From a candidate division WWE3 bacterium (lineage in GTDB: Bacteria > Patescibacteriota > WWE3 > UBA101185 > UBA10185): DNA of 64,000 bases. The translations under genes were made by a program, and so were the position numbers. Where the stretch lies: positions 459,338-523,337 of the forward strand of contig JBPOHV010000001.1 in NCBI GenBank assembly GCA_052035175.1. Direction: 5' to 3'. The notes under the pieces are model-generated. The model ran no database searches, was not told the origin of the DNA, and saw only the letters and a list, made by a program, of their open reading frames with translations. Below are positions 17,674 through 36,158 of this stretch, piece by piece. The first letter of the stretch is position 1. Every line of letters starts with the position of its first letter.

Positions 17674-19390
17674 GATCAGGCTTTACAAATTTTAATAGTA
17701 TCAAAACAAAAGTGGATGATATCAAACCGTATATTATCCAGAAATATTGCCAAGCGGTTATATGTTTGTGTGCAAAGCTTACAAACCCAGCAGATTTTGA
17801 AATGTTACTACTAAGTGTATCCAAATTTCTTTGCACTGTATACCTTTGTACTTTATTTGTAGTCTTTTCTAAAGCGAGAATTTCCACTTTTGGAGGCATA
17901 GCATTAGATGTTAACGCTCCTGCAGTATTAATATATGCAGATACATCAAACAAAATCACAAAAGCAATTACAAATAAAAAGCTTTTTTTATAGTTTGAAA
18001 GCGCTATCGCTAAATAAATAGCCAATATACCAAATACAGGAACTAAGTACCTTGGGCCAAACGCCCATCCACCCCAAACATCACCCCACATGGCATAAAG
18101 ACATACCAAGAGGCCAGAAACTCCTAGGAGTAGCGTGTGCATAACTTTATTAGATTTTTGTAAGAAGGCCATTCCATAAAAAGCCAAGATCATTACAGGT
18201 GCAAAAAATATAAATCCGCGATCTGGACTCAAAAATAAGATATACAGCCCATTTAACATTTCTCGCGTTTCAAAGTAATGCAAAGTATTTCTACTTTCGG
18301 TCTCTTGTTCAACGTCAAGATTTTCTTTTATAACAGCCTTGTTTTCGTCTTTGAATACTATTGGGTTACCTTGTTTGTCAAATTCCTGTACTTGTACAAC
18401 CGTACCAGCCAACTGCAAAGGATTTCCGTAAGATGTTTTATTAAACCAAAAGAAGAACGCAATAGCAGGAATTGCAGTGACTACACACAGAGTATATAGA
18501 GGTCTAAAAACCATTTTTAATTTATTGGTCTCTTTAGATATTTTTAGTACTTGTGTAACTGCATATATAGCAAAAGGTAGTAAAATTATCGCATTTGGGT
18601 AGTCTACTGAAATTGCAAGAAAGTAGGTAAAAGAAATAACCAACAATGTTTTATAGTTATCCCACTTCACAATCGCGTACAGACTTATCAAAATTAATAG
18701 TAATGTAACGTGGTGTTGATAAAGGCTTACTCCATATGCAAAAGCATTGGTGCCGAATAAAAAAGCCAGTGCAGCCAATACAGCTGCATATTTATTTGCT
18801 CCTAATTTTTTTGAAATCTCTATAATCAGTAAAACATTTATAAAAGCAATAAAAGTAATTACAGCATAAGTTCCCAATTGTGCTGCACCCAAAGCTTTAC
18901 CTATAACATATCCTGGAATTATTAAAAAAGAAACGCCTGGTGCAAATAACGAAACAAAGTTCCCATTAAAAAATCCCAAGTCGGGTGCAGCCAAACGCGC
19001 GACATCTTTTGAAAAATACAGTGTGTGATCTTCGACGACCGAATACATAAGCGCATAGCGTCCTCTGTCTGGGGATAGCTCGAGCGGGCCATCTTCTTTC
19101 CAGTTACTAGTGTTGAGTTCGGTTATAGAAGGATTTCCCACCATGCCTTTTATGCTTAGTGCAAGTATTGCAATTACTAAGATAAAGGCTATATATAGTG
19201 TTTTTTCTTTTATGCTTATTACTTTTTGAACCAATTGCTTAAGTAAAGGTGCAGCTATTTTGGCATTTATATCGAGGTTAGATATTTTGTTGTATATATA
19301 CTTTACGTTAAGCATTTTAGATATTCTGATATTTATTTTTAATAACAAAATTTTCGAAATCGACTTCATCGTATCTAATAATGTCTCCAA
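17663..19390 (-). CDS. GT-C-fold membrane glycosyltransferase (ArnT/PMT family-like). An alternative start at 19315 would avoid overlap with the SDR gene.
   Basis: Many TM helices, a large extracytoplasmic loop, and a C-terminal WGDVWGGWAFGPRYLVPV segment typical of PMT_2/ArnT-like enzymes. Confidence 0.5.
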   Translation of the reverse strand: METLLDTMKSISKILLLKINIRISKMLNVKYIYNKISNLDINAKIAAPLLKQLVQKVISIKEKTLYIAFILVIAILALSIKGMVGNPSITELNTSNWKEDGPLELSPDRGRYALMYSVVEDHTLYFSKDVARLAAPDLGFFNGNFVSLFAPGVSFLIIPGYVIGKALGAAQLGTYAVITFIAFINVLLIIEISKKLGANKYAAVLAALAFLFGTNAFAYGVSLYQHHVTLLLILISLYAIVKWDNYKTLLVISFTYFLAISVDYPNAIILLPFAIYAVTQVLKISKETNKLKMVFRPLYTLCVVTAIPAIAFFFWFNKTSYGNPLQLAGTVVQVQEFDKQGNPIVFKDENKAVIKENLDVEQETESRNTLHYFETREMLNGLYILFLSPDRGFIFFAPVMILAFYGMAFLQKSNKVMHTLLLGVSGLLVCLYAMWGDVWGGWAFGPRYLVPVFGILAIYLAIALSNYKKSFLFVIAFVILFDVSAYINTAGALTSNAMPPKVEILALEKTTNKVQRYTVQRNLDTLSSNISKSAGFVSFAHKHITAWQYFWIIYGLISSTFVLILLKFVKPDHEK

Positions 19391-20063
19391 TTATTTCTGC
19401 AACCCGATATGGGGACAAGTGATTGCCTGCTTTACTAGATACAAAATTTGTCATAGCAGATGGTAAGACGGCAATTACTCTTATGCCAAAGGGTTTTAAC
19501 TCATTTTTAAGAACATTAGTCATGCCTTCGACTGCATATTTTGTACTAGCATACAAAGATTTGTAAGGTGAGATCATACTATTGCGGGAGATTTTAGAAC
19601 CAATGTTTATTATAGTTCCTTGTTTTTGCTCTTTCATGTATTCTGCTGCATACTTTGATGTCAAAAAGTTTGATTTGATATTAACCGCAAGATATTCGTC
19701 TATGATATCTGAGGTAATCTCGCTTAGTTGTTTGTCGTATGTTACCGCGGCATTATTTATCAAAACATCTATTTTGCCGTATTCTTTGTGTATTTGATCA
19801 AAAATTGCGGCCACTTCGCTTTCATTTGTTATATCGCAAACCAGTGTATGCAACTTGTCTTGATTAGTAGCCGCAGATCTTGATAATGCGATAACATTAG
19901 CACCAGAATTATGCATATACTCTACAAGACACTTACCCAACCCCGTACTTGTACCAGTAATCACGATGATTTTTTCTGACAATTTGTTACTCGTCGGAAC
20001 CTCTAGCAGTTTTTGTTTGACAAGCAGATGAATTGTACGTTTTATATCCTTTAAAATTGTCAT
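19317..20063 (-). CDS. Short-chain dehydrogenase/reductase (SDR) family oxidoreductase
   Basis: ITGTSTGLG is the TGxxxGxG motif. Also NNAAV and the catalytic Ser...YASTK. Confidence 0.8.
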   Translation of the reverse strand: MTILKDIKRTIHLLVKQKLLEVPTSNKLSEKIIVITGTSTGLGKCLVEYMHNSGANVIALSRSAATNQDKLHTLVCDITNESEVAAIFDQIHKEYGKIDVLINNAAVTYDKQLSEITSDIIDEYLAVNIKSNFLTSKYAAEYMKEQKQGTIINIGSKISRNSMISPYKSLYASTKYAVEGMTNVLKNELKPFGIRVIAVLPSAMTNFVSSKAGNHLSPYRVAEIIGDIIRYDEVDFENFVIKNKYQNI

Positions 20064-20064
20064 A

Positions 20065-21237
20065 TTAAATTTTACTCATATAAAAATCGTGCATTCTTTT
20101 TGCTACTTCTTCCCATGTGTTTCTTAAGCCAAATTCTCGACTATTATTTTCAATTTGCTTAATTTCATCAGAGTTAGAATGCTCTAATACATAGTTAATC
20201 TTTTTTGCTAATGCATCACTATCTTTTGTTTCTATAAGATAGCCAGTTTCATTATCTTTGATTAAATAGGGGAGTGCGGTATTGTTTGCTACGATGCAGA
20301 CTTTTCCTTGACTTAAACCTTCGTGAACCACATTACAAAAGCTTTCCCACAAAGCCATATGCACCATCATTTGAGAGTGTTTGATCAAATAGTATTTATC
20401 GATGCCTTTTGAGATACCATAAAATATGACTCTATCTTCTACGCCCAAGCTTTTTGCCAAGTTGATTAACATTGTTTTATAACTTTCTTCTCCTACCGGA
20501 CCTACCAATAAGTATTTTACGTCTTTTGGTAATTTTGTAAGAGCCTTTATAGTTGTTTCATTATTTTTAATTTTGTAGATACGGCCAATCTGAATAATGT
20601 ATCTTCCAAATTGGTTTACGTGAGTCTTTACCAATGCACTTGCTTTGGCATCTACATCTTCAAAAGCTTCGTTTTCGAGCCCATTGTCGATAACTACTAC
20701 TTTTTCTTTGTTTACTCCTTTTGCAACAATTTGTTCTTTTTCCCATTCTGATACAGCCCTCACGCCATCAACAACAAGGTTTATCATCAATGTACCTAAA
20801 GTATAATGATATGTGGATTTCACTAGTCGTGTTGGAAGATCATATATAGACCATTCAGGATTAAACCCACCGTGTGGTGTTAGAAAGAGCTTAAATTTCT
20901 TTTTACCAAATATTTTTAGTATCAATGCAAAAGCCATTATGGCGAAATGAGGTAATATGTTGAAATTGTGCAAACATACAAAGTCTGCCTTTTGCCAATC
21001 TATTTTAGGCCAATAACCCATAGGCCCATAATTATATCTATTAACATTAATACCACTTATGATTTCTTCAGACTTCAGCACGTTTTTTTCGGTCAACGTA
21101 TCTGTAGTCGTATGCATGATTATGTCCCAGCCGCCTTTTACAAGCACTTTGTAAGTTTCATGTGTATTTACCTCAATTCCAGCTGTTACAGGAATAAAGT
21201 ATTTTTCTATAACATGTACAATCTTTTTTTCTGACAT
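20065..21237 (-). CDS. GT4-family (GT-B) glycosyltransferase
   Basis: C-terminal EX7E-type motif HMALWESFCNVVHEGLSQGKVCIVANNTALPYLIKDNETGYLIE. Confidence 0.7.
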   Translation of the reverse strand: MSEKKIVHVIEKYFIPVTAGIEVNTHETYKVLVKGGWDIIMHTTTDTLTEKNVLKSEEIISGINVNRYNYGPMGYWPKIDWQKADFVCLHNFNILPHFAIMAFALILKIFGKKKFKLFLTPHGGFNPEWSIYDLPTRLVKSTYHYTLGTLMINLVVDGVRAVSEWEKEQIVAKGVNKEKVVVIDNGLENEAFEDVDAKASALVKTHVNQFGRYIIQIGRIYKIKNNETTIKALTKLPKDVKYLLVGPVGEESYKTMLINLAKSLGVEDRVIFYGISKGIDKYYLIKHSQMMVHMALWESFCNVVHEGLSQGKVCIVANNTALPYLIKDNETGYLIETKDSDALAKKINYVLEHSNSDEIKQIENNSREFGLRNTWEEVAKRMHDFYMSKI

Positions 21238-21977
21238 TATGCTTTCCTCGCTTTTATAGAAACTATAACTGGGAAGTATTGATCATTGTAATCAAGTTCT
21301 TTTTTATCCATTTCTTCTAACGCCATTCCAACCCAGAAACATTGGCCTGCCAATGCATTTCCATATGTTTTAACTTCGAGTTCATCATGTACGAAGTATT
21401 TGTTAAAAATATATTCACCAGAAGCACGTGTCCATCTCCAATGATGGTGGTCGATATTCCAGACTGGTCCCAAGCATGGCATTGTAACAAGTATATATCC
21501 ACCTTTCTTCAAGATTCTATGACATTCTTTAATAGCTGCAGGGTAGTCATCGATCATTACAAAAGTTTGAGTGATTATCAAACAATCATATGTTTCATCA
21601 GCAATGTCTTTTAAGTCTCTTAAGTCTCCATAAAGATTGGCAACTTTATTATTTGTGTTTATATCCAAAGCATCTGCCCTAGAAACTTTTTCTTTGCCGT
21701 ATTTTTGTATATAAGCTGTGTCTGTAATTTCCAAGCAAGCTCCCTTTACTACATCAGCATTTTTTTCCATAAATTGTTCTATATAATATCGATCTATTGG
21801 TGTGCCTCTATCGTATCCGTAGACAGTGCTTAGCGGTTCTACGTTTTTAGTGTCTTCTACTCTTTTTGGTAATGGTGCGATGTAATAATTACTCAATGGT
21901 CTTAGTGTTTTCACTACAACATTTTGCACTTTTCGTACTATTTTATAAACTATTGAATTAGGATCTTTTTTTATCAT
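21237..21977 (-). CDS. Class I SAM-dependent methyltransferase (tentative)
   Basis: ACLEITDT...DCLIITQ...ILKKGGYILVT has Rossmann MTase-like spacing. Confidence 0.5.
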   Translation of the reverse strand: MIKKDPNSIVYKIVRKVQNVVVKTLRPLSNYYIAPLPKRVEDTKNVEPLSTVYGYDRGTPIDRYYIEQFMEKNADVVKGACLEITDTAYIQKYGKEKVSRADALDINTNNKVANLYGDLRDLKDIADETYDCLIITQTFVMIDDYPAAIKECHRILKKGGYILVTMPCLGPVWNIDHHHWRWTRASGEYIFNKYFVHDELEVKTYGNALAGQCFWVGMALEEMDKKELDYNDQYFPVIVSIKARKA

Positions 21978-22795
21978 AATATTGATCTTTCTATTATTTG
22001 TTTTTTTACAAATTTCTTAATAAACTTTCTAAACTTTATTACAGATGGAGATATTGTCCATAAGACTTCATTTATCCCGTGCGAACTATCTATTCCCACT
22101 CTTGGAATAGTTAGTAAGTCAGTGTTGGATGTTAGCGCCGCGTCATCCATACTAAATGCCGCTGTATACCCAGCTGATCTAATATATTTCAACACGTCGC
22201 TTGTATAATTTCCCTTTGGATAAGCAAAATAGTCTATGTTTATACCTAGGTCCGCCTGAAGCTTTTCTTTTGCTGTGATTACCTCTTCTTTTATCTGTGC
22301 TTTTGAAATACCAGAAAAGTTGATATGAGTCAAACTATGAGCCCCTACAGACCAGCCATTTCTATATAGCATTTTAATGTCATCGATAGATAAAAAGTCT
22401 TTTTTTGTATTCAAAGCTAGTTCGCCAAAATTATAATTTTCAGTATCAGCTATTACAAATATGCATGGTTTTATTTTCAATTGTTCCAAAAATTGCTCCG
22501 TTCGCAATATGTTTTTATATCCGTCGTCAAACGTTAGAACTACAGATTTTGTCATCGGCTTATTTGTTTGGAGATTTTCTAGCAGTTCGTTTACAGTTAT
22601 GAAGTTATATCCGTGCATTAAAAGTTTATTTATGTGTAATATGAATAGTTCTGGTTTTGTACTAAATCTCCATGCATCATTTGAAATACTGTGGTAACAC
22701 AAAACAACTGCGCTATTCTTTGTCTGCAGTATGTTGTCGATACTAAATAACGTAAAATAAATTATTTTTCTAATTAGTATAAAGAAGTTTTTCAT
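21974..22795 (-). CDS. Polysaccharide deacetylase (NodB homology domain, CE4) with an N-terminal membrane anchor (ORF-track start 22831)
   Basis: VVLTFDDGYKN (the TFDDG motif) and WSVGAHSLTHINFS (the His motif). Confidence 0.75.
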   Translation of the reverse strand: MKNFFILIRKIIYFTLFSIDNILQTKNSAVVLCYHSISNDAWRFSTKPELFILHINKLLMHGYNFITVNELLENLQTNKPMTKSVVLTFDDGYKNILRTEQFLEQLKIKPCIFVIADTENYNFGELALNTKKDFLSIDDIKMLYRNGWSVGAHSLTHINFSGISKAQIKEEVITAKEKLQADLGINIDYFAYPKGNYTSDVLKYIRSAGYTAAFSMDDAALTSNTDLLTIPRVGIDSSHGINEVLWTISPSVIKFRKFIKKFVKKQIIERSIL

Positions 22796-23721
22796 ATGTT
22801 TACTGTCTTTGACGAATTTGCCAATGTCCATGTGTCTTTATTGATTTTTTCAGGTTTGATTGCACTATACAGATAACAATATAAGACTAAGAAAGGATAT
22901 ATAGTGCTGTAAATAGGACTTTTTAGAAATACCTTTATTCCAGATATTGCTAGTTTTACCCATGGCCATTTAGTAAGTCTATGTATCAATTGCTTAGGTA
23001 AATCGTCATAAAATATCTTGTTAGAATTATAAAAGCGTATTTCTTGTTTTAAATGATCGTATAACGTTGCAGGTAATGCATACCAGCATTCTGTATCTTT
23101 TACAAAACTAAACTTAAACCCATTAGCGTGACAAAAAATATACGAATACATATCTTCTGCAAAGCTCTTTTTGAATTCAAATTTAAGTACAAATGCTTTG
23201 GATAAGGCTCTAATAGTGCCGTGGCAATTGTACCAATTATCACCGTCATTTAGATCTTCAAACGTTTCTCTTTTTATTTCGTTCCCAATAGCGAGAACTT
23301 TTTCTATAAATGTGCGTGGCTTGCTTTCTAAAAGGCGACAAGATACTAGATCGGCATGATCTTCACTTATTGGCTTGATCATTTTTTGTAAGCATTTGTT
23401 ATCTGTAATTCTAATGTCACCATTTAACAACAATACTATGTCAGCATTTTTATAGTGCATCAATTCATTTGATCTTGCGGCTAAGCCTTTGTTTTCTTTA
23501 TTGTCTACAACGATGATTTTGTCATTACTGACACTTTGCGCTTGCGCTACCGTATTATCGGTAGAACCATCAGAAAGAACAACTATGTTTATTAATTCAA
23601 ATGTTGATATGTCTTGTGCAACTAGGTCTGTTAAAAGATTTTTTATATTTGATCCTTCGTTGTAAGCTGGTATTCCGATAAGTACTTTTGGTTTATCCAT
23701 ATTATTTGTTTGAGTTACCAA
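22792..23721 (-). CDS. GT2-family (GT-A) glycosyltransferase
   Basis: IGIPAYNEGSNI and VVLSDGSTDNT motifs. Confidence 0.75.
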   Translation of the reverse strand: MVTQTNNMDKPKVLIGIPAYNEGSNIKNLLTDLVAQDISTFELINIVVLSDGSTDNTVAQAQSVSNDKIIVVDNKENKGLAARSNELMHYKNADIVLLLNGDIRITDNKCLQKMIKPISEDHADLVSCRLLESKPRTFIEKVLAIGNEIKRETFEDLNDGDNWYNCHGTIRALSKAFVLKFEFKKSFAEDMYSYIFCHANGFKFSFVKDTECWYALPATLYDHLKQEIRFYNSNKIFYDDLPKQLIHRLTKWPWVKLAISGIKVFLKSPIYSTIYPFLVLYCYLYSAIKPEKINKDTWTLANSSKTVNI

Positions 23722-26221
23722 CTTTATCTGTCAAATTTAGTTTCCATACAGAATCTTCTATATTAGACGTTTGAATACTGAGTGTTTTTCGTATTTCGTG
23801 TAAAAATTTATTTGCTGTCATTTCCCAGCTAAAATTATTTGCCCACAATTTACCAGTCTTACCAAATGTAGTTCTTAATTCATGATCAGATATCAATTTA
23901 TCAAGGGCTTCTGCTGTTTGGTCTACATTTGCCCATTCGACCAGCAATCCAGTTTTTTCATGATTTACCGATTCTTTGAGTCCGGGAACATTTGTTGCAA
24001 CTACTGGAGTTTCACACATATTTGCTTCTATAACAGTAATTCCCCAACCTTCTACCATTGATAATTGTACTGCTATCCACGATTTGGTAAACAGTTGTGC
24101 CTTTGTTTTTTCAGTAACATTACCTTTGAAAACCACATGTTTTTGAAGTCCTAATTGGTTGACTTGTGCTTTTAGTGTTTTTTCGTGTTCTCCGCTTCCG
24201 GCTATTATCAGCTTGATATTAGTATATTTCTCTTTTAATTTATGAATAGCGTGAATTGCTGTATCTACGCCTTTATACTCGCGCAGACGTCCAAGATATA
24301 AAACGGTTGGCGTTGACGTCTTTTTCACTTTTGCTGGTTTGATTTCGACGCCAGGGTACATAATTTCTATGTTTTGATTTTTCCCAAGACCTATTTTGAG
24401 CATTTCTTCTCTTGTAGAATCTGATACAGCTAACATTTTGATTTTTCTGTATAAGAACGGCATCAATATACCTTCTAAAAACATAGAAAGTTGCTTGGTA
24501 GGGAATGGTAATTCTTTTTTAAACATTTCTTGATGTACTTGATGAACAAGACATATCTTTGGTTTTGTTACAAATAGAGGAGTAAAGAAAGGTACACCTT
24601 TGGGAATATCGATGACTACATCAAAGTTTTTTCTAAACTTGATTACGTAATATATAAATCCCCAGATTGCTACAGTATAAATCCCGCCGCGTCTAAAAAC
24701 TTTAACGCCATCTACTTCTTCATAATGCTCGCTTTGTTGATCATTTCCGCAAAAGAATGTTACATCATGCCCTTGTTTCACAAAATTTTTAGCAACTTGA
24801 TGTATATATATTTCTGCACCGCCACCCCATACGTGTTTTGTATCGTACCAGTTATATATTAATATACGGAGCTTATCAGGGTTTAGTTTACGTGGTTTGG
24901 GAAGAGGCGAGAACAACCCATAAAAAGCTACTAGGTTATTTAACGCTATTTCTATATGAGTATTAAACAAATGCAAAAGTAGTGCCGTACTCAAATTTAC
25001 AAATCCTAGTACAGCCATAAGTATGACGAAGCTTTCTAAATCGGTATTAAAATGTCCAAGCACATATATTTGTACTAAAGCTAGTAAAAAGCTAGTAATT
25101 GGGAACAAAGATTTGTCTTTAATTTGATAGTAACCAAAGATTGTAGAGGCCAACGAAAACAAAAGTACTGCAAAGCCATAAATAGGTAAAAGCTCAGTTA
25201 CATTTGAGATCTTATCTCCAAATAAAAACGCTGCAGTGTGATTGCCAAAGAGTCCTACTGCTATATATACACAAAAGCTACATAACGCAGAAATGAAGAA
25301 CAAAGTATAAAACTTGTTAGAACTATCTACCTTTGAGCCTTCATCTTTACTAACTAACGGTAAGATAAATTGACTAAAAAGGCCTCCTATCGAAAATATC
25401 ATTTTGCCGACCAAAGCTACTAATGCGTATTCACCTGCTTCAATTGGAGATAAATAGTGTTTTGCTAAAAGCACATCAAAGCTTAAAAAAGCTATAATCG
25501 AGAAATTATACACAAATGAAGACGTATAGAATTTTGTTGGGAATTTGATGTTGTCCGATTTAGCTTGTGCTGTTTGTTTTCTAACCATGAATTTTACAGA
25601 GAGATATGCTATCGACAAAGCTACAAACAGTGATGTAGGTATAGCCAAATAAGCAAATTCGCCATAGCCAGTTACGACTAAGATATATGCAACGAGAAGC
25701 TTACAAATAGCTTCTACAGTTATCAAAATTCCAACAGCAGTAAACTTCAAATTACCGTTTATAAAGCCAGTATCTATAGAAGCTAAGCTTGCTATGAAAA
25801 TACAAGGTGTAAACAAAAGTATAGGTAGTAGTGAGTCGGTTTTAAAATAGTTCATCAAGAAAGGGGAGGCAACGATCCATACAACACTGAACAATCCAGA
25901 AATCAAAAAGATATTTTTGCGAGTTTCATACCAAAACGTTGTAAATGGTTTTTTATATTTTCCAAAATAAAAAGCAGACTCGTGTATAACTGTACGGTTC
26001 AAAGCATTTAGCGGTATCGATAATAAAAATAAGAAGCTACCGATCAAACTAATCAATCCAAAATCTTCGATTGACACAGCTCGCGTTAAAAAAGCGTTAT
26101 AGGCGTAGTTGAGAAAATTTGCAACTACACCAGAGGCTACAAGAACCATTCCAGATGTTGCATAAGCTTTTACCGAGGAAAAAGCTTTGTTGATTAGTGC
26201 ATAAATTTTGTTTAGCACCAT
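23702..26221 (-). CDS. Fusion protein: N-terminal Wzx/MOP-type polysaccharide flippase-like polytopic domain plus C-terminal GT4 glycosyltransferase
   Basis: The first ~430 aa contain more than 12 TM helices of the polysaccharide-biosynthesis-protein type. The last ~380 aa are GT-B, with LAVSDSTREEM...EGWGITVIEANMCETPVVATNVPGLKESVNHEKTGLLV. Confidence 0.65.
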   Translation of the reverse strand: MVLNKIYALINKAFSSVKAYATSGMVLVASGVVANFLNYAYNAFLTRAVSIEDFGLISLIGSFLFLLSIPLNALNRTVIHESAFYFGKYKKPFTTFWYETRKNIFLISGLFSVVWIVASPFLMNYFKTDSLLPILLFTPCIFIASLASIDTGFINGNLKFTAVGILITVEAICKLLVAYILVVTGYGEFAYLAIPTSLFVALSIAYLSVKFMVRKQTAQAKSDNIKFPTKFYTSSFVYNFSIIAFLSFDVLLAKHYLSPIEAGEYALVALVGKMIFSIGGLFSQFILPLVSKDEGSKVDSSNKFYTLFFISALCSFCVYIAVGLFGNHTAAFLFGDKISNVTELLPIYGFAVLLFSLASTIFGYYQIKDKSLFPITSFLLALVQIYVLGHFNTDLESFVILMAVLGFVNLSTALLLHLFNTHIEIALNNLVAFYGLFSPLPKPRKLNPDKLRILIYNWYDTKHVWGGGAEIYIHQVAKNFVKQGHDVTFFCGNDQQSEHYEEVDGVKVFRRGGIYTVAIWGFIYYVIKFRKNFDVVIDIPKGVPFFTPLFVTKPKICLVHQVHQEMFKKELPFPTKQLSMFLEGILMPFLYRKIKMLAVSDSTREEMLKIGLGKNQNIEIMYPGVEIKPAKVKKTSTPTVLYLGRLREYKGVDTAIHAIHKLKEKYTNIKLIIAGSGEHEKTLKAQVNQLGLQKHVVFKGNVTEKTKAQLFTKSWIAVQLSMVEGWGITVIEANMCETPVVATNVPGLKESVNHEKTGLLVEWANVDQTAEALDKLISDHELRTTFGKTGKLWANNFSWEMTANKFLHEIRKTLSIQTSNIEDSVWKLNLTDKVGNSNK

Positions 26222-26222
26222 A

Positions 26223-28382
26223 TCAGCCGCCGATCTTGGCAGGAACTTGGTTAGCAGCCTTTTTAAGATGGAGACCGTGTTGTGTTTTTTCCCAGTGATG
26301 TGGTTTAAATAACAATTGATAAAATGCCATTACTGCAGCAATACTCATCAAAAACCAATAAAAGGGTACTAAAAAGACGTATTTCATGAGTTCCCAGTGG
26401 CCTCTTTTTGCAAGGCCTATCATATAGTTGTACAAGTATAAAAAGTTGCCGAATACCAGTGAAATAGCCCCCATATAAAACACAGTTGTTGGATAAAAAG
26501 ATTCAATAGTTGGTCCTACATATTTATATAAAACAAAATATGAAATAGTCATCGCCCACCAGATAGGATTAATCAAAATGAATATAATTCTCAAACCAAT
26601 TATCAACTGGAATAGTAATGCATGTGCGCCGTTTGTTCTAAAGAAGTTTATTGGGTCGCGCATGTGTACCTGATATGTTTGCATGTAGCCTTTGAGCCAG
26701 CGTGATCTTTGGCGGATCCAGTTCTTTGTATTGCTGTTTGCTTCTTCTAGTGTTACAGAATCAATAATTGCAGTTTTGTATCCTTCTTTAAATAGCCTTA
26801 CTCCCAAATCACAATCTTCTGTTACATTAAATGGATCCCAACCTTCAAGCTCTCGTAATTTCTGAGTTTTGAAATGATTGCTTGTGCCACCTAAAGGTAT
26901 ATAAGTGTCGATGCTTTGTAAACCTGGTAAAACTACATCAAACCACAAAGAATATTCCGCAGTAAATAAGCGTGTTAATAAATTGTGGTGTGGGTTGTAA
27001 TAATTGAGTTTTGCCTGGACGCAGACTGTTTTTTCACCAAGCTGTGTGAACGCAAGGTATGCTTTTTTTAACTGCATAGGCTCAGTTTTATCTTCAGCGT
27101 CATATATTACTATATATTCACCTTTTGCTTGTAACAACCCGTAGTTGCACGCTTTTGGTTTTGTTTTTGGTGCTGAATGAGGAGTAACTACTATTCTAAA
27201 GTAATCGGGTAAACTCATACTTTGTGCCACATGTATAGTTTTAGCATCGTCTTCTTCAAGTAACAAAATGACATCAAGTTTATTTTTTGGCCAATCAATA
27301 TTGTTGATAGCTTCGATGAAATGAGGCAAAACTTCGGATTCTTTATATAAAGGACACAAGATCGTATAAACCGGTAATGTTTTGTCGTTTATACTGGCTA
27401 ATTGTGCGTCTGAAAAAGCCAGTTCTGGCGGAAAATAGAGGCTTTTTGATATAACGAATACGCTGAAAATGACATCTGCAAAATAAATAGCAGTTAAAAA
27501 AGCAATAAGGCCAATAAGTGTGTACATGTAATTTGTATAGAGTCCATAACCTAATGCAAGTATTCCAGATACTATTATAATTTTTTGCCATCTTTGAAAT
27601 GTGTATATAGCCGATTTTGAATGATGTCTATTTGTGTGAGTTACATATTTCTTTTTCCTATAAATAACGCCAGATTCAATGTTATAGACTCTTCTATTCT
27701 TAAACCTAGTTTTAAAAGCGCACTTAGCTATATCAAAACCTGTTTTTAGGATACCAACCTTTGATGCGCCTTCTTCTCGAGCTTCAAACTCTATGTCAAC
27801 TTTGTCGATTTTGTATCCCAATTCTTGTGCCGCGAATAAAAGTGGGATATCAAATGTCCATGGTGTTACGAGAGACTTGTCTATTTCTATTCCTATACTT
27901 TTTCTAAAAATCTTGAGACCCGATTGAATGTCTGTATTTATACCAGCCAGCAATCTACCAAAAACAAATACCCCCAATCTAGACAATATTCTGCGTAGAA
28001 GAGGTGCTTTAAAGACTTTTCTGTTTGCTACAACTACTCCTATTGTTTCGTCTTGCATCTTGGCATACATCTCTGGTAGGTATTTGGGTGAGTACTGCAA
28101 ATCACCGTCTATAAAAGCTATCAATTTGGCATCAGATACAGATATACATTCAAGTAGCGTATACCCTTTGCCAGGTTTACCTTGCTTTTCGTGTAATAAT
28201 ATTTGATTCTGATCTTTAATTTTGTGTATTTCTTTGAGTGTGTTGTCGGTAGATTTATCGACGCCAAAAAGTATCTTATAGTCGATATTTAGTGGGTCAA
28301 GTGCACTTTTTATACCAGCCACCATTTTGGCAATATTCTTTTCTTCGTTTTTGACTGGTACTATTATGTCTAAGTCTCTCAT
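26223..28382 (-). CDS. Tandem GT2 fusion: polyprenyl-phosphate glycosyltransferase-like (DPM1/GtrB-like) domain, TM segment, then a processive synthase-type GT2 with a QxxRW motif and C-terminal TMs
   Basis: The N-terminal domain has IIVPVKNEEKNI...FIDGDLQY. The second domain has LCPLYKESE...YDAEDKTEP...NWIRQRSRWLKGY (the Q/RxxRW box). It is flanked by multiple TM helices. Confidence 0.65.
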   Translation of the reverse strand: MRDLDIIVPVKNEEKNIAKMVAGIKSALDPLNIDYKILFGVDKSTDNTLKEIHKIKDQNQILLHEKQGKPGKGYTLLECISVSDAKLIAFIDGDLQYSPKYLPEMYAKMQDETIGVVVANRKVFKAPLLRRILSRLGVFVFGRLLAGINTDIQSGLKIFRKSIGIEIDKSLVTPWTFDIPLLFAAQELGYKIDKVDIEFEAREEGASKVGILKTGFDIAKCAFKTRFKNRRVYNIESGVIYRKKKYVTHTNRHHSKSAIYTFQRWQKIIIVSGILALGYGLYTNYMYTLIGLIAFLTAIYFADVIFSVFVISKSLYFPPELAFSDAQLASINDKTLPVYTILCPLYKESEVLPHFIEAINNIDWPKNKLDVILLLEEDDAKTIHVAQSMSLPDYFRIVVTPHSAPKTKPKACNYGLLQAKGEYIVIYDAEDKTEPMQLKKAYLAFTQLGEKTVCVQAKLNYYNPHHNLLTRLFTAEYSLWFDVVLPGLQSIDTYIPLGGTSNHFKTQKLRELEGWDPFNVTEDCDLGVRLFKEGYKTAIIDSVTLEEANSNTKNWIRQRSRWLKGYMQTYQVHMRDPINFFRTNGAHALLFQLIIGLRIIFILINPIWWAMTISYFVLYKYVGPTIESFYPTTVFYMGAISLVFGNFLYLYNYMIGLAKRGHWELMKYVFLVPFYWFLMSIAAVMAFYQLLFKPHHWEKTQHGLHLKKAANQVPAKIGG

Positions 28383-28511
28383 ATTTCATATAAACCCAAC
28401 TGCAGTGCCCTGGCCGGATAGTAAAGATGATTATACCCGATTATCTGGCTATTTCAACTTTTATGGTATATGTTGCCAGTATATAGTAAAGTATTTAATT
28501 ATGGTGCTTAT

Positions 28512-29186
28512 ATGAGACTATTACTTGTAGAAGACGAAGTTAAATTGTCTAGCAACCTTAAAAAGCTATTAAAAGGGGAGTCCTATAGTATTGATGTCTC
28601 TGATACAGGGGCTTATGCACTTGAACTAGCTAATACGACAAATTATGACGTAATCATTCTAGACCTTGGTTTGCTAGATATGTCTGGCTTGGAGGTTTGT
28701 AAAAAGTTTAGAGAGCAGTTAATAACTTCGCCTATACTTATACTTACTGCGAGAGATGATGTTTTTTCTAAAGTAAAAGCATTGGATTCTGGGGCAGATG
28801 ACTATTTGGTGAAGCCTTTTGAATTTAATGAACTTACCGCACGCTTACGTGCTTTGCTTCGTAGAAATACGGCAGTACTAGATACTATATATAGTATTGA
28901 TTCTTTAGAGATATATCCAGATAAAAAATTGTGTGTTCGCGAAGGTCGTGACGTTGCGTTGAGTGCAAAAGAATACGCATTGCTAGAGTATTTGATACGA
29001 AATAAAGACAAAGTAATCTCAAAAAGCCAGTTGATCGATCATGTATGGGATGACGGTTTGGATCCATTTTCTAATGTTGTCGACGTATATATTGGTTATG
29101 TACGCAATAAAATAGATAAGGCATTTCCAGACGCCAACCCATTGGTACATACAATAAAGGGATTAGGTTATAAACTATCGTTATGA
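28512..29186 (+). CDS. OmpR-family response regulator (ORF-track start 28470)
   Basis: A receiver domain MRLLLVEDE...DVIILDLGLLDMSG...LTAR...LVKPF plus a winged-helix effector domain. It is divergent from the glycan locus. Confidence 0.85.
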   Translation: MRLLLVEDEVKLSSNLKKLLKGESYSIDVSDTGAYALELANTTNYDVIILDLGLLDMSGLEVCKKFREQLITSPILILTARDDVFSKVKALDSGADDYLVKPFEFNELTARLRALLRRNTAVLDTIYSIDSLEIYPDKKLCVREGRDVALSAKEYALLEYLIRNKDKVISKSQLIDHVWDDGLDPFSNVVDVYIGYVRNKIDKAFPDANPLVHTIKGLGYKLSL

Positions 29187-30160
29187 CAGAATTTGAAAAA
29201 GCTCGTGCAAAGCTAACCTTATATTATTTTTTACTTAGTTTCGTGTTGTTAACTTTTTTTAGCATTATGGCTATAGGAGCAGAGCGTACTGCCTTCAAGA
29301 AAATTACTGATGCACTGAGTAATCCTACCGAAAGACCAGTTTTGACAAAAGTTTTGTCTACAAGTTTGAATGAGTTTGATAGCGATTTTATAAAAACTTT
29401 ACTTATTTTTGATCTGGCGTCGTTAATAGTTGCTATGTGGTTTGGGTATTATATGAGCGGCCAGACATTGCGTCCAATAGCTGAAATGTTGACAAGGCAC
29501 GAAGAATTTTCTCAAGACGTTTCGCATGAACTTAGAACACCACTTACAAATATTTCTCTAGAGTTAGAAGTTTTGAACCGTCAAAGTTTGGATGTTGAAA
29601 CAAAAAAGTCTTTATCTAGTATTACGAGCGAAGTAACACGGATGCAAAGATTGATAAATGGGCTTTTGTCCTTGGTACATATGCAAAACCCTTATGACAA
29701 ATCGATTTTCAAACCTGTCGATCTTGTAGATATAAGCATAAAGGCATTTGATACATTCAAGCGTTTAGCAGAAGAAAAAAATATTACACTTCATTTTAAA
29801 TATTCAAAAAAACCTATTTTAGTTACAGGAATTTCAGATCAAGTATATCAATTGGTTGTGATTCTTTTGGAAAATGCAATTAAATACACAAGTTCACGCG
29901 GCAGCGTTGCGATCAACATATATGCAACCCCAGACAGTGGCATTATAGAAATAACTGATACTGGCGTGGGTATAAAAAAATCTGAGCAGCGTAATATATT
30001 CAAAAGATTTTATAAGGGCGATAAGTCTTTGGGTTTTGGTCTAGGCTTATCGATAGCCCAAAAAATTGTCAAAGATAATAAAGGTAAATTGATATTAGAT
30101 GATACTTATGTCAAAGGGTCAAAATTTGTTGTCAGTTTTGACCTCTTAAGTTCTTCTTAA
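29183..30160 (+). CDS. Sensor histidine kinase (two TMs, HisKA plus HATPase_c)
   Basis: H-box VSHELRTPL, N-box LLENAIKYT, G1 ITDTGVGI, G2 GLGLSIAQ. There is a 4-nt overlap with the regulator. Confidence 0.8.
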   Translation: MTEFEKARAKLTLYYFLLSFVLLTFFSIMAIGAERTAFKKITDALSNPTERPVLTKVLSTSLNEFDSDFIKTLLIFDLASLIVAMWFGYYMSGQTLRPIAEMLTRHEEFSQDVSHELRTPLTNISLELEVLNRQSLDVETKKSLSSITSEVTRMQRLINGLLSLVHMQNPYDKSIFKPVDLVDISIKAFDTFKRLAEEKNITLHFKYSKKPILVTGISDQVYQLVVILLENAIKYTSSRGSVAINIYATPDSGIIEITDTGVGIKKSEQRNIFKRFYKGDKSLGFGLGLSIAQKIVKDNKGKLILDDTYVKGSKFVVSFDLLSSS

Positions 30161-32513: not shown

Positions 32514-35500
32514 ATGAGTATTTTTGTATTCGTTCACAATATTATTAATCGAAAATTATTTTTTTCCTCAACAATTTTTCTAACGCTTCTAACATCTTCA
32601 TTTTTAGTTTCAAATATATCTTACGCAGCGACAGATTGGTCTATGGCTGGAGGAAATCCTCAGCGTAATAGTTGGACACCCGATGAAGCTCCCGGTGGTA
32701 AAAAAATATCTTGTGTAGTTCCTATAGAACCATACGTTCAATTTGAAGCTCAACCTATTGTTGCGAATAATAAAGTTTTTGTATCTACTGCCAAAGGTTT
32801 GTATGCATTCAATATTGCTGATTGTACCCAAGCATGGGCAAACCCTTTTGCTACAGAGCTACCTTTAGGTAACTCGCCAACTTATTCAAACGGGAAATTG
32901 TATGTAAGTGGTACAGATCGCAAACTTTATGCACTAGATGCAACTAATGGTACAAAACTTTGGGAATTTATTGCTGATGGTCCTTTTGAAGTAAATCCTT
33001 TGGTAGTTGATGGAGTTGTTTATGCCGGAAACCATGATGGAAATATGTATGCTATTGATGCTACTACCGGACAAAAGCTATGGAATTACAACGTAGGTGC
33101 TCAAATATTCCAATCTGCGACATACAATAACAATAAAATCTTTTTTGGTGCAATGAATAGCAAAGCATATGCTTTAAATATTGACGGTACATTATCTTGG
33201 AGTACTCCATTGCCAGTCATGGGTTGGAGAACTTTTTGGCCAGTGGTTTATCAAGACAAAATAATATGGACACGTACAGATTTTGCACGAAACAGTAATT
33301 ATCCCAATGATTTTTCTGGTGAATCTTCTATGGTAAAAGAAAGAGATTATTTGTTTGGACCAAATCCAAATGACTCTGGAAGTATAGCTGGTCAAGTTTA
33401 TACACAAACACAACCAAATAGTTGGTTACCAGTCAATTCAAAATATGCAGACTTAAGCGTAAATCCAATAATACCTGGAAACAGTGTTGTGAATTATTTG
33501 GAAGCAAATATACAAAGCAGAAATCTTTTTATCCTCAATCAAAGTGATGGCGTCGAAAACTTTTTTCAACTTGACGACGATAACAATGATGGCTTAATAA
33601 ATTCAAGTGATACTCCAGATGCAGCTCCATTTCTTACATATTCTGGAGATAATAATACTGGGTATCCACCAGTAGTTAGTGGTTATAATGGTCTTATCTA
33701 TACAAGAAACCCAATCTATCAAAGCGGAGTTCTTTCTGGATCTATGGCGCAAGGTTGGAATTATGGTACACCTTTGGTAAGTATAGCTTTATCGAGCCAA
33801 AGTGGTACTAGTCCAGATTGGCCAATGGATGAATATGTAGGATTATCAGCAGGCGGCAAATATTTACATTGGAGCGTGATTTTGGGAAGAAATATTGGTG
33901 GTGTAGATTTGTCCAAACCAAATGCCGCATTTCCTGGATTTGATAAGACTCGCCAATTTAGATATATAAATCGAAGTCAGCCAGGTACAAATAGTGGTTT
34001 ATTTCCTGTTGGATTCAATACACAAACACACAAATTCTTTTGGTATCCATCACAAGTTCAACCAGATAGCCAGTTATACTTCGGCCACAATTATCAGACT
34101 GGACCTGTTGTATACGGCACCAATGTTGTTTCTACTGTCAGTAATTCTTTGGTAGTTTTTGCTCCTACTGGAAGTGCTTCATTAAAACCTGTAGCTTTAA
34201 GCCCGACCAATACGCCTTCTGCTGCTACCACTGTTTCAAATACAATTTTACGAGAAAGATTAATTAATGAAATCACCAAAATTGTTACACCAGATTCAAA
34301 TGGTAATTTTGTGACCTTTAAACCTGGTTATACAAATGTAGGTAATTTTGATTCTCATGCGTATGCTTCGCTTGGAGATAATATTTTGGATTATTGGAGT
34401 AATCCTGCAGAAACTATAACTGCTCTTATTTCGACACTTCCTTATTTAGATGAACCTTTAAAAACACAAACCCGTTCTTATATACAACATATATATGCAA
34501 CTTATCCTCCATATCAGTACACGCATGTTGGTTGGGTAGAAGGTTCATTTAGACAAAATTTTGTTTGGCCAGAAGCAATGATCAACAATACTTTGCAAAA
34601 AGTTGGTGTTTCAAGTTTTTACAGTGGGATAACTCCGTTCAATGTATATAGTATGTATAAATATGCCGAAGTTGGTCTTGGTGATCCTGTTGCTGTTTAT
34701 CAAAACGCTAAAAATATTTTACCGCCTCAAGTTCCTTCTTTTGCAACAGACACTTATTTAAAAACATATACACATGTCTTAAATAGTTATATTGCTGGGT
34801 ATATTGGTTATGTAAAATTGGCTCAATTAGCTCAAACTACTGATAATTATAATGCTTATATTACTGAAAGAGATCGTTTGTTGACTCTTCGTAAAAATAA
34901 TTGGGCTACTACACCTCCTACTGCAGGTATAAATAATGCAGCACCCAAACTTTATTTTCATACTTTAATTACTGGTTGGAATTTTATGTATATGGTACCT
35001 GAGTTGGCAGATTATTTGAGTGCAAATATTCTTTCTGCTGTGAATACTACTATTAATATGTATACAGATAAAGTTCCTTATCCTGTACCAGGAACTAATA
35101 ACGGACCACGAGCCCCTTATTGGTTTATTCCTGAGAATAAAGAAGTACAAGGTGAAAATGGTATTACACCTTACTATCAAACTTTTGGTATTTTCCAAGC
35201 AAAAGCTTTAATTTCAAAAAGCACTCAAACTGAACTAAGTAAATATATTAGTATGCCAGTTACTCCTGTTGGAGATTTATTCTACATACAAAATTTAGTT
35301 GCAGTTCTAAATGCACCCGATGATACTGCTCCAGTAGTAACAATCACTTCACCAAGTAATAATTCTATATTGACTAATGTAGTATCTGTTACAGCTGCCG
35401 CACAAGATAATGGGTGGTTGAGTAATGTTTCTTTTTACAAAGACGCAGACTTGTTATTCACTGATACATCAGCACCTTACGAGTATGATCTTGACACTAC

Positions 35501-36158
35501 GCAGTTTACAAACGGTGACTACACACTCACTGCAATTGCTACTGATGCGTCGAACAATACAGCGTTCTATTCTATTAATATAACTGTTGATAATGTTTTA
35601 CCTGATACTACAAACCCAACAGTTGATATAACGCAGCCAGCAGATAATACTGTAGTTGCTGGTAATGTAACTTTAACTGCTAACGCATCAGACGATGTAG
35701 CATTGTCGGGCGTCCAGTTTAAGCTTGATGATATAGACTTAGGCGTATTAGATACTGAAGCACCCTATACTGTAGATTTAGATACTACTTTATATAGTAA
35801 TAGCACTCATACAATAAGTGCAGTGGCATACGATACATCGGGAAACACAAGTACAGATCAAATTTCTTTGACTTTTGATAATGAACTGCCGGAGGCACAG
35901 ATTACAAGTCCGCTACCAGATGAAACTCTATTTGGTTTAGTTACAATTTCTGCAAATGCCATAGATAATATTGGAATCTCCACGGTACAGTTTAAACTCG
36001 ACGATTCAGAGTTAGGAGCTCTTTTGATTGAATCTCCTTATACAGTTGACTTTGACTCAACTCAGGTTACAAATGGAGCTCATACGTTATCTGTTGTTGC
36101 ACTCGATACTGTTGGTAATGTCACTAATCATACAATAAACATTATTGTTCAAAATTAG
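32514..36158 (+). CDS. Large secreted protein: N-terminal PQQ/BamB-like beta-propeller repeats, a central domain of unknown function, and four C-terminal bacterial Ig-like domains
   Basis: Signal peptide, then repeats KLYALDATNGTKLWEF and MYAIDATTGQKLWNY. The C-terminus has four ~95-aa repeats of the form P..V.IT.P.......V.....A.D..G...V.F..D......D...PY....D.T....G.HT....A.D..GN. Confidence 0.6.
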   Translation: MSIFVFVHNIINRKLFFSSTIFLTLLTSSFLVSNISYAATDWSMAGGNPQRNSWTPDEAPGGKKISCVVPIEPYVQFEAQPIVANNKVFVSTAKGLYAFNIADCTQAWANPFATELPLGNSPTYSNGKLYVSGTDRKLYALDATNGTKLWEFIADGPFEVNPLVVDGVVYAGNHDGNMYAIDATTGQKLWNYNVGAQIFQSATYNNNKIFFGAMNSKAYALNIDGTLSWSTPLPVMGWRTFWPVVYQDKIIWTRTDFARNSNYPNDFSGESSMVKERDYLFGPNPNDSGSIAGQVYTQTQPNSWLPVNSKYADLSVNPIIPGNSVVNYLEANIQSRNLFILNQSDGVENFFQLDDDNNDGLINSSDTPDAAPFLTYSGDNNTGYPPVVSGYNGLIYTRNPIYQSGVLSGSMAQGWNYGTPLVSIALSSQSGTSPDWPMDEYVGLSAGGKYLHWSVILGRNIGGVDLSKPNAAFPGFDKTRQFRYINRSQPGTNSGLFPVGFNTQTHKFFWYPSQVQPDSQLYFGHNYQTGPVVYGTNVVSTVSNSLVVFAPTGSASLKPVALSPTNTPSAATTVSNTILRERLINEITKIVTPDSNGNFVTFKPGYTNVGNFDSHAYASLGDNILDYWSNPAETITALISTLPYLDEPLKTQTRSYIQHIYATYPPYQYTHVGWVEGSFRQNFVWPEAMINNTLQKVGVSSFYSGITPFNVYSMYKYAEVGLGDPVAVYQNAKNILPPQVPSFATDTYLKTYTHVLNSYIAGYIGYVKLAQLAQTTDNYNAYITERDRLLTLRKNNWATTPPTAGINNAAPKLYFHTLITGWNFMYMVPELADYLSANILSAVNTTINMYTDKVPYPVPGTNNGPRAPYWFIPENKEVQGENGITPYYQTFGIFQAKALISKSTQTELSKYISMPVTPVGDLFYIQNLVAVLNAPDDTAPVVTITSPSNNSILTNVVSVTAAAQDNGWLSNVSFYKDADLLFTDTSAPYEYDLDTTQFTNGDYTLTAIATDASNNTAFYSINITVDNVLPDTTNPTVDITQPADNTVVAGNVTLTANASDDVALSGVQFKLDDIDLGVLDTEAPYTVDLDTTLYSNSTHTISAVAYDTSGNTSTDQISLTFDNELPEAQITSPLPDETLFGLVTISANAIDNIGISTVQFKLDDSELGALLIESPYTVDFDSTQVTNGAHTLSVVALDTVGNVTNHTINIIVQN
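35320..36150 (+). repeat. Four tandem ~285-nt Ig-like-domain coding repeats (diverged)
   Basis: Seen as a periodic protein motif (TSP.....V...V.A.A.D...S.VQFKLDD..LG). Confidence 0.5.

Follow-up and report, generated by a model that had tools for sequence, protein, structure and literature searches.

We examined a 64,000-nucleotide stretch of DNA from a candidate division WWE3 bacterium (GenBank assembly GCA_052035175.1, contig JBPOHV010000001.1, positions 459,338 to 523,337; hereafter the window), in which a gene at 26223..28382 of the minus strand encodes two glycosyltransferase family 2 (GT2) domains in a single chain. Sequence profiles, motifs and the predicted fold jointly support the reading of its product as a bifunctional GT2-GT2 membrane protein, composed of an N-terminal domain (N-domain) of the type found in dolichyl-phosphate mannose synthase (DPMS), GtrB and ArnC, and a C-terminal module (C-module) of the kind found in BcsA and hyaluronan synthases (HAS). 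Both halves are of known kinds by fold and motifs. The synthase, a lipid-sugar GT2 and a predicted glycosyltransferase of the GT-C fold recur as a triad in at least five phyla, and this conserved, repeatedly fused triad apparently represents an undescribed pathway.

The gene is the first in a long minus-strand glycan cluster and forms one open reading frame (ORF) with an ATG start, 719 amino acids (aa) and no internal stops. Pfam assigns aa 6-151 to PF00535 and aa 339-616 to PF13641/PF13632, NCBIfam divides the protein in a like manner, and PDB sequence matches lead from aa 3-222 to GtrB, PfDPMS and ArnC and from aa 297-616 to BcsA. The AlphaFold2 (AF2) model of the protein has a mean predicted local distance difference test score (pLDDT) of 88.3 and a predicted template modelling score (pTM) of 0.82. 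A presumed hydrophobic hairpin (aa ~264-316) lies between the two GT2 domains and helices (aa 552-692) follow the second. Hydropathy and the AF2 model agree with the original prediction, which had placed a membrane segment between the domains and transmembrane (TM) helices at the C-terminus; its reading of two GT2 domains also stands, with two GT-A domains rather than one, as Pfam, PDB profile and fold matches are separate for each half.

A homologue search covering 5.8 billion proteins returned 6,831 homologues, and architecture was checked in the best 120 of them. These have 93-100% coverage (nearly all 98-100%) at 51-65% identity, stem from NCBI, JGI, ENA and Logan assemblies, and, where sources are named, belong to Patescibacteria (Chisholm-, Woese-, Levy-, Buchanan- and Daviesbacteria and Saccharimonadales). 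When each half was searched with its own profile, the N-domain preceded the synthase in 120/120, so that the window protein shares the GT2-synthase fusion with all of its 120 top matches; the fusion is present in many separate metagenome-assembled genomes (MAGs) as well as in at least 120 database clusters. A 40-sequence alignment showed the catalytic residues of both domains to be invariant and the linker between them to be conserved; agreement on this scale goes well beyond chance. The original prediction had called this fusion unusual, which holds in that it is uncharacterised but not in the sense of rarity, since it is common in Patescibacteria. No further copies (paralogues) of the fusion were found within the 64-kb window.

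The N-domain (aa 1-230; 27693..28382, minus strand) is by profile and fold a DPMS/GtrB/ArnC-type catalytic unit, consisting of a GT-A domain and two interface helices. In a PDB search with the family profile, its best matches by more than 12 orders of magnitude were PfDPMS (5MLZ; 1.5e-31), GtrB (5EKP; 6e-26) and ArnC (9ASC; 7e-26), with other GT2s at 1e-12 or worse. Foldseek superposed it on ArnC, PfDPMS and GtrB with root-mean-square deviations (rmsd) of 2.5, 3.3 and 3.4 A, respectively, over ~234 columns, and in the predicted structure the helices at aa 128-146 and 211-228 sit where the interface (juxtamembrane) helices lie. The donor diphosphate/metal motif DGDLQ (aa 92-96; 28095..28109, minus strand) aligns with 89-DADLQ-93 of PfDPMS, and D92, D94 and Q96 are invariant in the 40-sequence alignment. 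Acceptor-phosphate and acceptor-loop residues could also be assigned by alignment (R121, R130, S134, D151, R202 and K208; 27759..28022 on the minus strand for aa 121-208). Residue by residue, PfDPMS Glu12 corresponds to E13, 89-DADLQH-94 to 92-DGDLQY-97, Arg117 to R121, Arg131 to R130, Ser135 to S134, Arg202 to R202 and Lys208 to K208; the functional residues of PfDPMS and the role of the DxDxQ motif have been defined previously (PMC5526996). R121 further aligns with R122 of GtrB, which binds the acceptor phosphate (PMC4728340), and D151 aligns in a profile alignment with the Asp of the DPMS motif KDPVSGF. The acceptor-site residues are invariant within the family and are retained in fused and split relatives of several phyla. 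With the fold and these residues, the suggestion of the original prediction that the first 230 aa resemble polyprenyl-phosphate sugar transferases is borne out, and we conclude that the N-domain is predicted to be a competent DPMS-type catalytic unit.

The N-domain shares with PfDPMS, GtrB and ArnC the GT-A domain and interface helices, the DxDxQ motif, the acceptor Arg/Arg/Ser and the loop Arg/Lys, but it differs from them in having no TM domain of its own, in lacking GtrB Asp157 and in falling outside the named orthologue groups. Instead of carrying TM helices, it is attached to the N-terminus of the synthase. A PfDPMS cut to residues 1-229 is still membrane-targeted and as active as the wild type, and human DPM1, which is without TM helices, works with DPM3 (PMC5526996); the missing dedicated TM domain is thus no obstacle. 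The best NCBIfam models for this half were PgfS, ArnC, AglJ, dolichyl-phosphate hexose transferase and PpgS, all far under their curated cutoffs, and none of the named groups PgfS, ArnC, AglJ and PpgS was reached (25-57 bits against cutoffs of 325-529).

The N-domain is followed by a conserved beta-hairpin linker (aa 231-263; 27594..27692, minus strand; AF2 strands at 232-247), in the region of which G238, H249 and Q266 are invariant in the 40-sequence alignment. Stand-alone synthases of the candidate phyla radiation (CPR) align from about aa 208-235 onward and also carry the linker, which therefore belongs to the synthase module. The next segment, aa 264-316 (27435..27593, minus strand), is by hydropathy a presumed membrane hairpin with TM1 at ~267-283, a turn at N284 and TM2 at ~288-312. 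We argue from the sequence that this segment is probably a two-pass hairpin which brings the chain back to the cytoplasm: the topology requires two passes, and the Asn-Pro found at the presumed turn (aa 284-285) in 23/40 homologues (Asn-Tyr in the window protein) and the positive charges at both ends of the segment fit them. The presumed second hairpin helix also carries a YFxDxxF motif (aa 300-306; 27465..27485, minus strand), in which Y300, F301, the buried D303 and F306 are invariant.

The remainder of the protein, aa ~231-719, is predicted by sequence and model to be a complete membrane-embedded synthase of the BcsA/HAS kind that lies outside the named orthologue groups. Its GT-A domain (aa 337-550; 26733..27374, minus strand) is of the BcsA/HAS/PgaC synthase type according to PF13641/PF13632 and to the match with BcsA (E 3.6e-17 in the family-profile PDB search). 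The motifs DAED and RQRSRW are present where the original prediction had named them, together with a TED motif. DAED (aa 428-431; 27090..27101, minus strand) is the DxD-type donor-binding motif, with D428, A429, E430 and D431 invariant; TED (aa 521-523; 26814..26822, minus strand; T521, E522 and D523 invariant) is the catalytic-base motif of BcsA-type synthases; and RQRSRW (aa 557-562; 26697..26714, minus strand), invariant from R557 to W562, is the QxxRW acceptor-binding motif. Interface and TM helices at aa 552-692 (26307..26729, minus strand; AF2 helices 552-573, 577-584, 586-617, 619-629, 632-659 and 663-692) form the predicted translocation channel. Foldseek aligned 446-491 columns of this half with BcsA, Chlorella virus hyaluronan synthase and Xenopus HAS1, membrane helices included, with an rmsd of 5.0 A over 456 columns for BcsA 4P00, at an identity to solved synthases of only 13-18%. 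In common with BcsA, hyaluronan synthases and PgaC/IcaA, the C-module has the D, DxD, TED and QxxRW motifs, interface helices and a predicted TM bundle, to which the helices at aa 552-692 and the N-terminal hairpin contribute; it differs from them in lacking PilZ and in being a distinct family partnered with a GT-C enzyme. No PilZ or MshEN domain was detected by Pfam in the window protein. Likewise, NCBIfam assigned the synthase half to no named orthologue group: it remained below the cutoffs of PgaC_IcaA (86.5 against 422 bits), CelA (61 against 699), NodC (26 against 550) and the NfrB-type models (38 and 27 against 409-537), and EpsU, also among the matches, was far under its cutoff.

The third member of the triad is represented in the window by u564, a multi-pass membrane protein of 564 aa (15979..17673, minus strand) that AF2 and Foldseek predict to be a glycosyltransferase of the GT-C fold. 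Sequence searches with u564 gave no match in Pfam (E up to 5), NCBIfam or the PDB, and the family-profile PDB search was empty to E 10. Its AF2 model (mean pLDDT 78.6) nevertheless recovered members of the GT-C superfamily for all of the top 36 Foldseek matches, among them STT3, AglB, AftA, ArnT, ALG9, PMTs and Emb proteins, and its remoter relatives exceed the gathering cutoff of the GT-C model PMT_2. The protein is 60-70% identical across CPR and carries an invariant YNDARSH motif (aa 58-64) immediately after its first TM helix. Clustering at 50% identity gives 2,683 representatives for its apparently uncharacterised family. At the outer face of the membrane, characterised PMT/ArnT-type GT-C enzymes take their sugars from polyprenyl-monophosphate donors. 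Such donors are what DPMS/GtrB-type enzymes make, and the N-domain could supply u564.

To place these genes in a wider context, we scanned one genome per species and retained 80 synthase loci with ~10 kb on each side; as the loci were chosen by synthase similarity, they are a biased sample. Profile searches found a u564-type gene near the synthase in 40/78 loci, usually as the directly adjacent gene outside CPR, and u564 is the most consistent partner of the synthase. Beyond the GT2-synthase fusion of the window protein, the members of the triad are joined in other combinations. Synthase and GT-C are fused at L029, L031, L034 and L035 and in 117/120 matches to the L031 protein, with independent fusions in Chloroflexota; GT2 and GT-C are fused, often with GH5, in L030, P0461 and P0510; and P0339, P0354 and P0420 (about 1,450-1,470 aa) hold GT2, synthase and GT-C in one chain. 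In Bacillota (L037, L038, L045, L046 and L047) and in a Chloroflexi MAG (L024), the triad occurs as adjacent separate genes. The separate GT2 carries a GtrA/DPMS TM domain in L024, L037, L046 and L047 but not in L038 and L045, and nearly every one of these separate GT2s retains the DPMS hallmark residues. Split homologues, for which the original prediction had suggested a search, therefore exist (L022, L024, L037, L046 and L047). We also observed that in Dormibacterota and Chloroflexota the extracytoplasmic C-terminus of the GT-C bears a fused GH5 or GH113 domain (L030:11407-14709, P0370, P0452 and P0510).

A flippase would complete the set of components, and the gene next to the GT2-GT2 gene probably supplies it. 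This gene (23702..26221, minus strand) encodes an 839-aa protein with a MOP/Wzx-type flippase-like domain (aa ~1-445), identified by homology, and a glycosyltransferase family 4 (GT4) domain, identified by Pfam. It starts 1 nt past the stop of the GT2-GT2 gene, the junction reading TGA-T-ATG (26221-26225). Its membrane half has 36% identity (E 4e-34) to the region of P0055 that matches PF01943, PF13440 and MatE, and the assignment of the window's own domain as a flippase is probable through this homology to PF01943/PF13440/MatE-positive relatives. At L001-L005 the GT2-GT2 and flippase-GT4 genes are joined as one four-module protein of 1,362-1,585 aa; the longest, the 1585-aa protein of L001, matches PF01943 at 39.3 bits against a cutoff of 28.2. 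The window gene pair is either the result of a fission or an ancestral unfused state.

The synthase module itself is the conserved core of the family and its N-terminal appendage the variable part. Alone or otherwise extended, the module occurs at 44-50% identity in Chloroflexota, Actinomycetota, Bacillota, Bacteroidota, Proteobacteria, Planctomycetota, Dormibacterota and others. The synthases of Paenibacillus, Sporolactobacillus and Mucilaginibacter (L037:9128-11482, L046:9086-11407 and L064:9584-11431) carry an N-terminal MshEN domain, a receptor for cyclic diguanylate (c-di-GMP), where the window protein has its DPMS-like domain, which suggests that the synthase is under c-di-GMP control in the MshEN-bearing phyla and that this control has been replaced in CPR. 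Architectures in CPR comprise the synthase alone, synthase-GT4, synthase-flippase-GT4, GT2-synthase and GT2-synthase-flippase-GT4 (up to 1,585 aa). CPR itself has split genes as well, at L022 and at L015, where the orthologue from Ca. Daviesbacteria (L015:9971-14660), the closest genome relative by best-segment identity, is broken inside the membrane hairpin into a 336-aa ORF with GT2 and hairpin and a 1,210-aa remainder; the break may be due to a frameshift or to an error in sequencing, or the split may be genuine. In a Saccharimonadales MAG (L009, 3887-16275), three GT2-synthase paralogues stand in a row. Behind each of two of these comes a u564-type GT-C gene, and past the row there is a fourth synthase of greater divergence; the arrangement amounts to a local expansion of the system.

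We give slightly better than even credence to an explanation, drawn from sequence, predicted structures and gene context, in which a Gtr-like three-component glycosylation system is coupled to a synthase-dependent polymer: the product of the N-domain would be flipped and the GT-C would decorate the extruded polymer. Starting from the observed architecture, motifs, predicted folds and genetic linkage, we infer both activities, the passage of the lipid-linked sugar to the GT-C, the acceptor role of the polymer and which sugars take part. The protein would be an inner-membrane enzyme with two active cytoplasmic GT-A domains on a shared anchor of TM helices. With a nucleotide sugar as donor, the N-domain would load one sugar onto polyprenyl phosphate, yielding a polyprenyl-P-sugar, and the C-module (here aa ~264-719) would polymerise a beta-linked glycan and thread it through its own channel. 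The MOP-type domain encoded by the next gene (a GtrA-type domain in other phyla) would then probably flip the lipid-linked sugar to the outside, and u564, possibly together with a second multi-pass membrane protein of the cluster, u575, would add side-branch sugars to the emerging polymer. In CPR a deacetylase, and elsewhere GH5 or GH113 domains, may subsequently work on the polymer as accessory enzymes. The fusion would in this way tie the supply of donor for extracytoplasmic decoration to backbone synthesis, and the GT-C partner and the flippase, neither of which the original prediction had noted, are its most likely rationale. Decoration rather than obligate priming is indicated by the 33/78 synthase loci that have neither partner in the sequence examined; in 21 of the 33 the flanking sequence extends for at least 5 kb to either side.

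The nature of the polymer can be addressed only through hints. In the window, the best NCBIfam match of the synthase half is PgaC/IcaA and the deacetylase of the cluster is nearest to IcaB and PgaB, all far below cutoffs, which is a hint of a polymer containing GlcNAc. Mannanases and cellulases both occur in GH5, and GH113 is made up of beta-mannanases. Given the GH5 or GH113 domains on the GT-C of Dormibacterota and Chloroflexota, the backbone in these lineages may be a beta-1,4-mannan or glucan. The GlcNAc and mannan/glucan hints conflict, and different lineages may make different products.

Several observations weigh against the decoration of a synthase product as set out here. First, the polymer is an acceptor of the GT-C that we infer from gene fusion and adjacency only. 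Second, the CPR loci L010, L012, L016-L018 and L021 have synthase and GT-C but no fused N-domain; the donor there comes from another GT2, or the GT-C is independent of the N-domain. Third, the Foldseek E-values of u564 are modest (4e-5 to 1e-3), and its aa 58-106, where the active-site loops of GT-C enzymes lie, have a pLDDT <50. Fourth, the TM half of the 839-aa protein has no direct match in Pfam (E up to 5) or NCBIfam. Fifth, AF2 renders aa 264-316 with high confidence as a single continuous 53-residue helix, which, taken literally, would put the two GT domains on opposite membrane sides. Sixth, the proposed catalytic Asp157 of GtrB has no counterpart in the window protein, the aligned position being L156. 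Because L156 faces Asp157, the N-domain is DPMS-like rather than GtrB-like at this site, and PfDPMS likewise has no Asp157 equivalent and needs no catalytic base (PMC5526996).

Among other explanations, an unlikely but serious one is that the product of the N-domain primes the synthase, which builds the whole chain on it during translocation, and that the GT-C moves the finished chain to the wall, a lipid or a protein. Such a linear three-step path would explain fusions in every combination, the triple ones included, and an initiating enzyme fused to the synthase would be the most economical arrangement if the product were handed over within the molecule. The N-domain matches AglJ, the initiator of a glycan linked to dolichyl phosphate (Dol-P), at E 2e-10 (below cutoff), and the top Foldseek matches of u564 are oligosaccharyltransferases (STT3 and AglB), which transfer glycans en bloc; the scheme would resemble synthase-dependent O-antigen assembly followed by ligation, or the AglJ-started assembly of archaeal Dol-P N-glycans. 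However, the synthase often occurs without either partner nearby (the 33/78 loci above), and in CPR also without the N-domain, so that priming by the N-domain is not obligatory. Furthermore, relatives of u564 match PMT_2, and characterised PMT_2-type enzymes move one sugar at a time, with polyprenyl-monophosphate sugars as donors. The system also comes with a dedicated flippase module of the MOP or GtrA type, which would be needless if the synthase channel carried a lipid-linked chain. Finally, we know of no BcsA/HAS-type synthase that extends a polyprenyl-monophosphate sugar, which also counts against priming.

It is less probable still, and in our view distinctly doubtful, that the two halves are separate enzymes on a shared anchor, with the lipid sugar serving another process, such as protein O-glycosylation or another wall polymer, and the synthase making an unrelated exopolysaccharide; the fusion would then amount to co-expression and tethering of a DPM1-like domain devoid of TM helices. 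The membrane tether of DPMS-type domains can indeed be supplied in trans or come from an unrelated protein, as with human DPM1 and DPM3 (PMC5526996). The GT4s, the further GT2 and the flippase of the cluster could form a separate lipid-linked pathway, and PMT_2-type GT-Cs include protein O-mannosyltransferases. On the other hand, the independent synthase-GT-C fusions in Chloroflexota (117/120 matches), the triple fusions and the strict adjacency kept across five phyla are hard to explain if the synthase product has no bearing on the GT-C.

A co-polymerase with two active sites, adding two sugars alternately to one chain in the style of K4CP or a class II hyaluronan synthase, is very improbable. 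The chain does hold two GT-A domains, and K4CP is among the Foldseek matches, with both domains in the alignment (E about 7e-14), but the superposition is poor (rmsd about 19 A, TM-score 0.25). The N-domain is specifically of the lipid-phosphate-acceptor type, with phosphate-binding Arg/Ser and interface helices, and its split orthologues carry GtrA/DPMS TM domains, whereas the C-module alone has the full single-site processive motif set and is widespread without the N-domain. We see an even slimmer chance that the C-module is a GT21-like processive glycolipid synthase that acts on a membrane lipid and secretes no polymer. The Pfam match to Glyco_transf_21 (E 2.8e-8) would agree with this, as would the fact that CPR bacteria scavenge and remodel lipids; however, the PF13641/PF13632, PgaC_IcaA, CelA and BcsA matches are much stronger, the BcsA/HAS fold match takes in the channel-forming helices, relatives bear fused polysaccharide hydrolases of GH5 or GH113, and a polysaccharide deacetylase is encoded in the cluster. 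Lastly, an assembly or frameshift artefact uniting two genes has a practically negligible chance: no support for it was found, although the broken gene at L015 shows that breaks are possible, and a frameshift or misassembly is excluded by the continuous frame and by the same join and conserved linker in 120/120 best homologues.

The decoration of an extruded polymer has partial precedents in known systems. In GtrA/GtrB/GtrC-type systems, a DPMS/GtrB-type lipid-sugar synthase, a flippase (of the GtrA, SMR or MATE family) and a GT-C enzyme add side-chain sugars after polymerisation, and the C. youngae PPRS-MATE-GT136 system uses a MATE-family transporter as its flippase (PMC11127046). These systems and CsbB-YfhO follow the same charge-flip-transfer logic, and the three types of component are present at the window locus by prediction. 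The described three-component systems modify Wzx/Wzy- or ABC-transporter-dependent glycans and consist of separate proteins (PMC11127046), whereas the polymerase of the window type is a synthase-type GT2 and the components are physically fused in various combinations. BcsA-BcsG (9FMV), which is among the Foldseek matches, provides a precedent for a synthase-docked membrane enzyme that modifies the nascent polymer outside. BcsG transfers phosphoethanolamine from a phospholipid; it is not a GT-C and uses no lipid-linked sugar donor. K4CP (2Z86) and class II hyaluronan synthase resemble the window protein in having two GT-A domains per polypeptide, but they are soluble or peripheral, form no channel and act with both domains on the same chain. 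E. coli NfrB (PMC8669469) has an MshEN domain, as do non-CPR members of the synthase family; in the family, this domain is N-terminal, at the position of the DPMS-like domain, and the window protein has no MshEN domain and weak similarity to NfrB. Our literature search, whose coverage is incomplete, found no published account of a fusion between a processive synthase and a DPMS-type enzyme, nor of the triad with a GT-C, and on MshEN domains with glycosyltransferases it found NfrB-type work only.

More broadly, we entertain, as a tentative and rather unlikely extension, that the triad is an unrecognised phylum-spanning line for surface glycopolymers, with a polyprenyl-monophosphate start, BcsA-like elongation and translocation, and transfer or branching outside the cell by a new GT-C family. 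If this assembly-line reading were true, the triad would be a fourth combination of lipid carrier and polymerase beside the Wzx/Wzy, ABC-transporter and classical synthase routes, and it may be the main envelope polysaccharide pathway of many Patescibacteria. Synthase-dependent polymers such as cellulose, poly-N-acetylglucosamine, hyaluronan and alginate are generally regarded as products of routes that need no lipid carrier, and the triad would connect such polymers with decoration by GT-C enzymes and lipid-linked sugars. A new, so far unannotated GT-C family would be defined as well. CPR/Patescibacteria have almost no characterised envelope biochemistry, and surface contact with their hosts is essential to them; the triad is a concrete, testable candidate for a major surface glycan pathway of these bacteria. 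The triple fusions, together with versions in culturable Paenibacillus (P. foliorum, P. tyrfis and P. thalictri; L037, L038 and L045) and Sporolactobacillus (sp. THM7-7; L046), make the system experimentally accessible, and P0339, P0354 and P0420 are good structure targets.

The cluster downstream of the flippase-GT4 gene contains a block of accessory genes on the minus strand (19317..23721), assigned by Pfam: a GT2 (22792-23721), the polysaccharide deacetylase with IcaB and PgaB as its nearest models (21974-22831), a methyltransferase (21237-21977), a GT4 (20065-21237) and a short-chain dehydrogenase/reductase (19317-20063). These accessory genes reappear in several CPR loci. No BcsB-, PgaD- or Alg44-type partner was recognised among the cluster genes by Pfam or NCBIfam. 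The second multi-pass membrane protein, u575 (575 aa; 17663..19390, minus strand), has ~12 hydrophobic segments, is present in 17/80 loci and resembles putative glycosyltransferases of the LA_3751/LA_3752 family from Leptospira (NCBIfam NF047440, E 4e-9, below cutoff). We considered whether u575 is a paralogue of u564, and hhalign ruled this out (probability 2%). At the distal end of the cluster, u414 (414 aa; 14738..15982, minus strand), which is secreted or anchored by its N-terminus and has a weak CarboxypepD_reg-like domain, is co-conserved in 10/80 loci at 30-64% identity.

Upstream of the GT2-GT2 gene, an 87-bp gap holds the best sigma-70-like site of the region, TTGAAA-16-TATAAT (28430..28457, minus strand). 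It scores 11/12 and is only suggestive, as the total of such sites is not above that in shuffles; a terminator scan of the region likewise gave a count not above shuffles. Across the gap lies a divergent pair of response regulator and histidine kinase genes (28470..30160, plus strand), 87 bp upstream of the GT2-GT2 gene. The pair was considered as a conserved regulator and rejected, since the 80 loci gave no response-regulator matches and 4 weak kinase matches. Elsewhere in the window, many ORFs around two large predicted surface proteins are without a Pfam match. One of these two proteins (32514..36158, plus strand; 1,214 aa) combines a PQQ-type beta-propeller with Big_7 Ig domains, and the other (50628..56477, minus strand; 1,949 aa) has fibronectin-III-like repeats.

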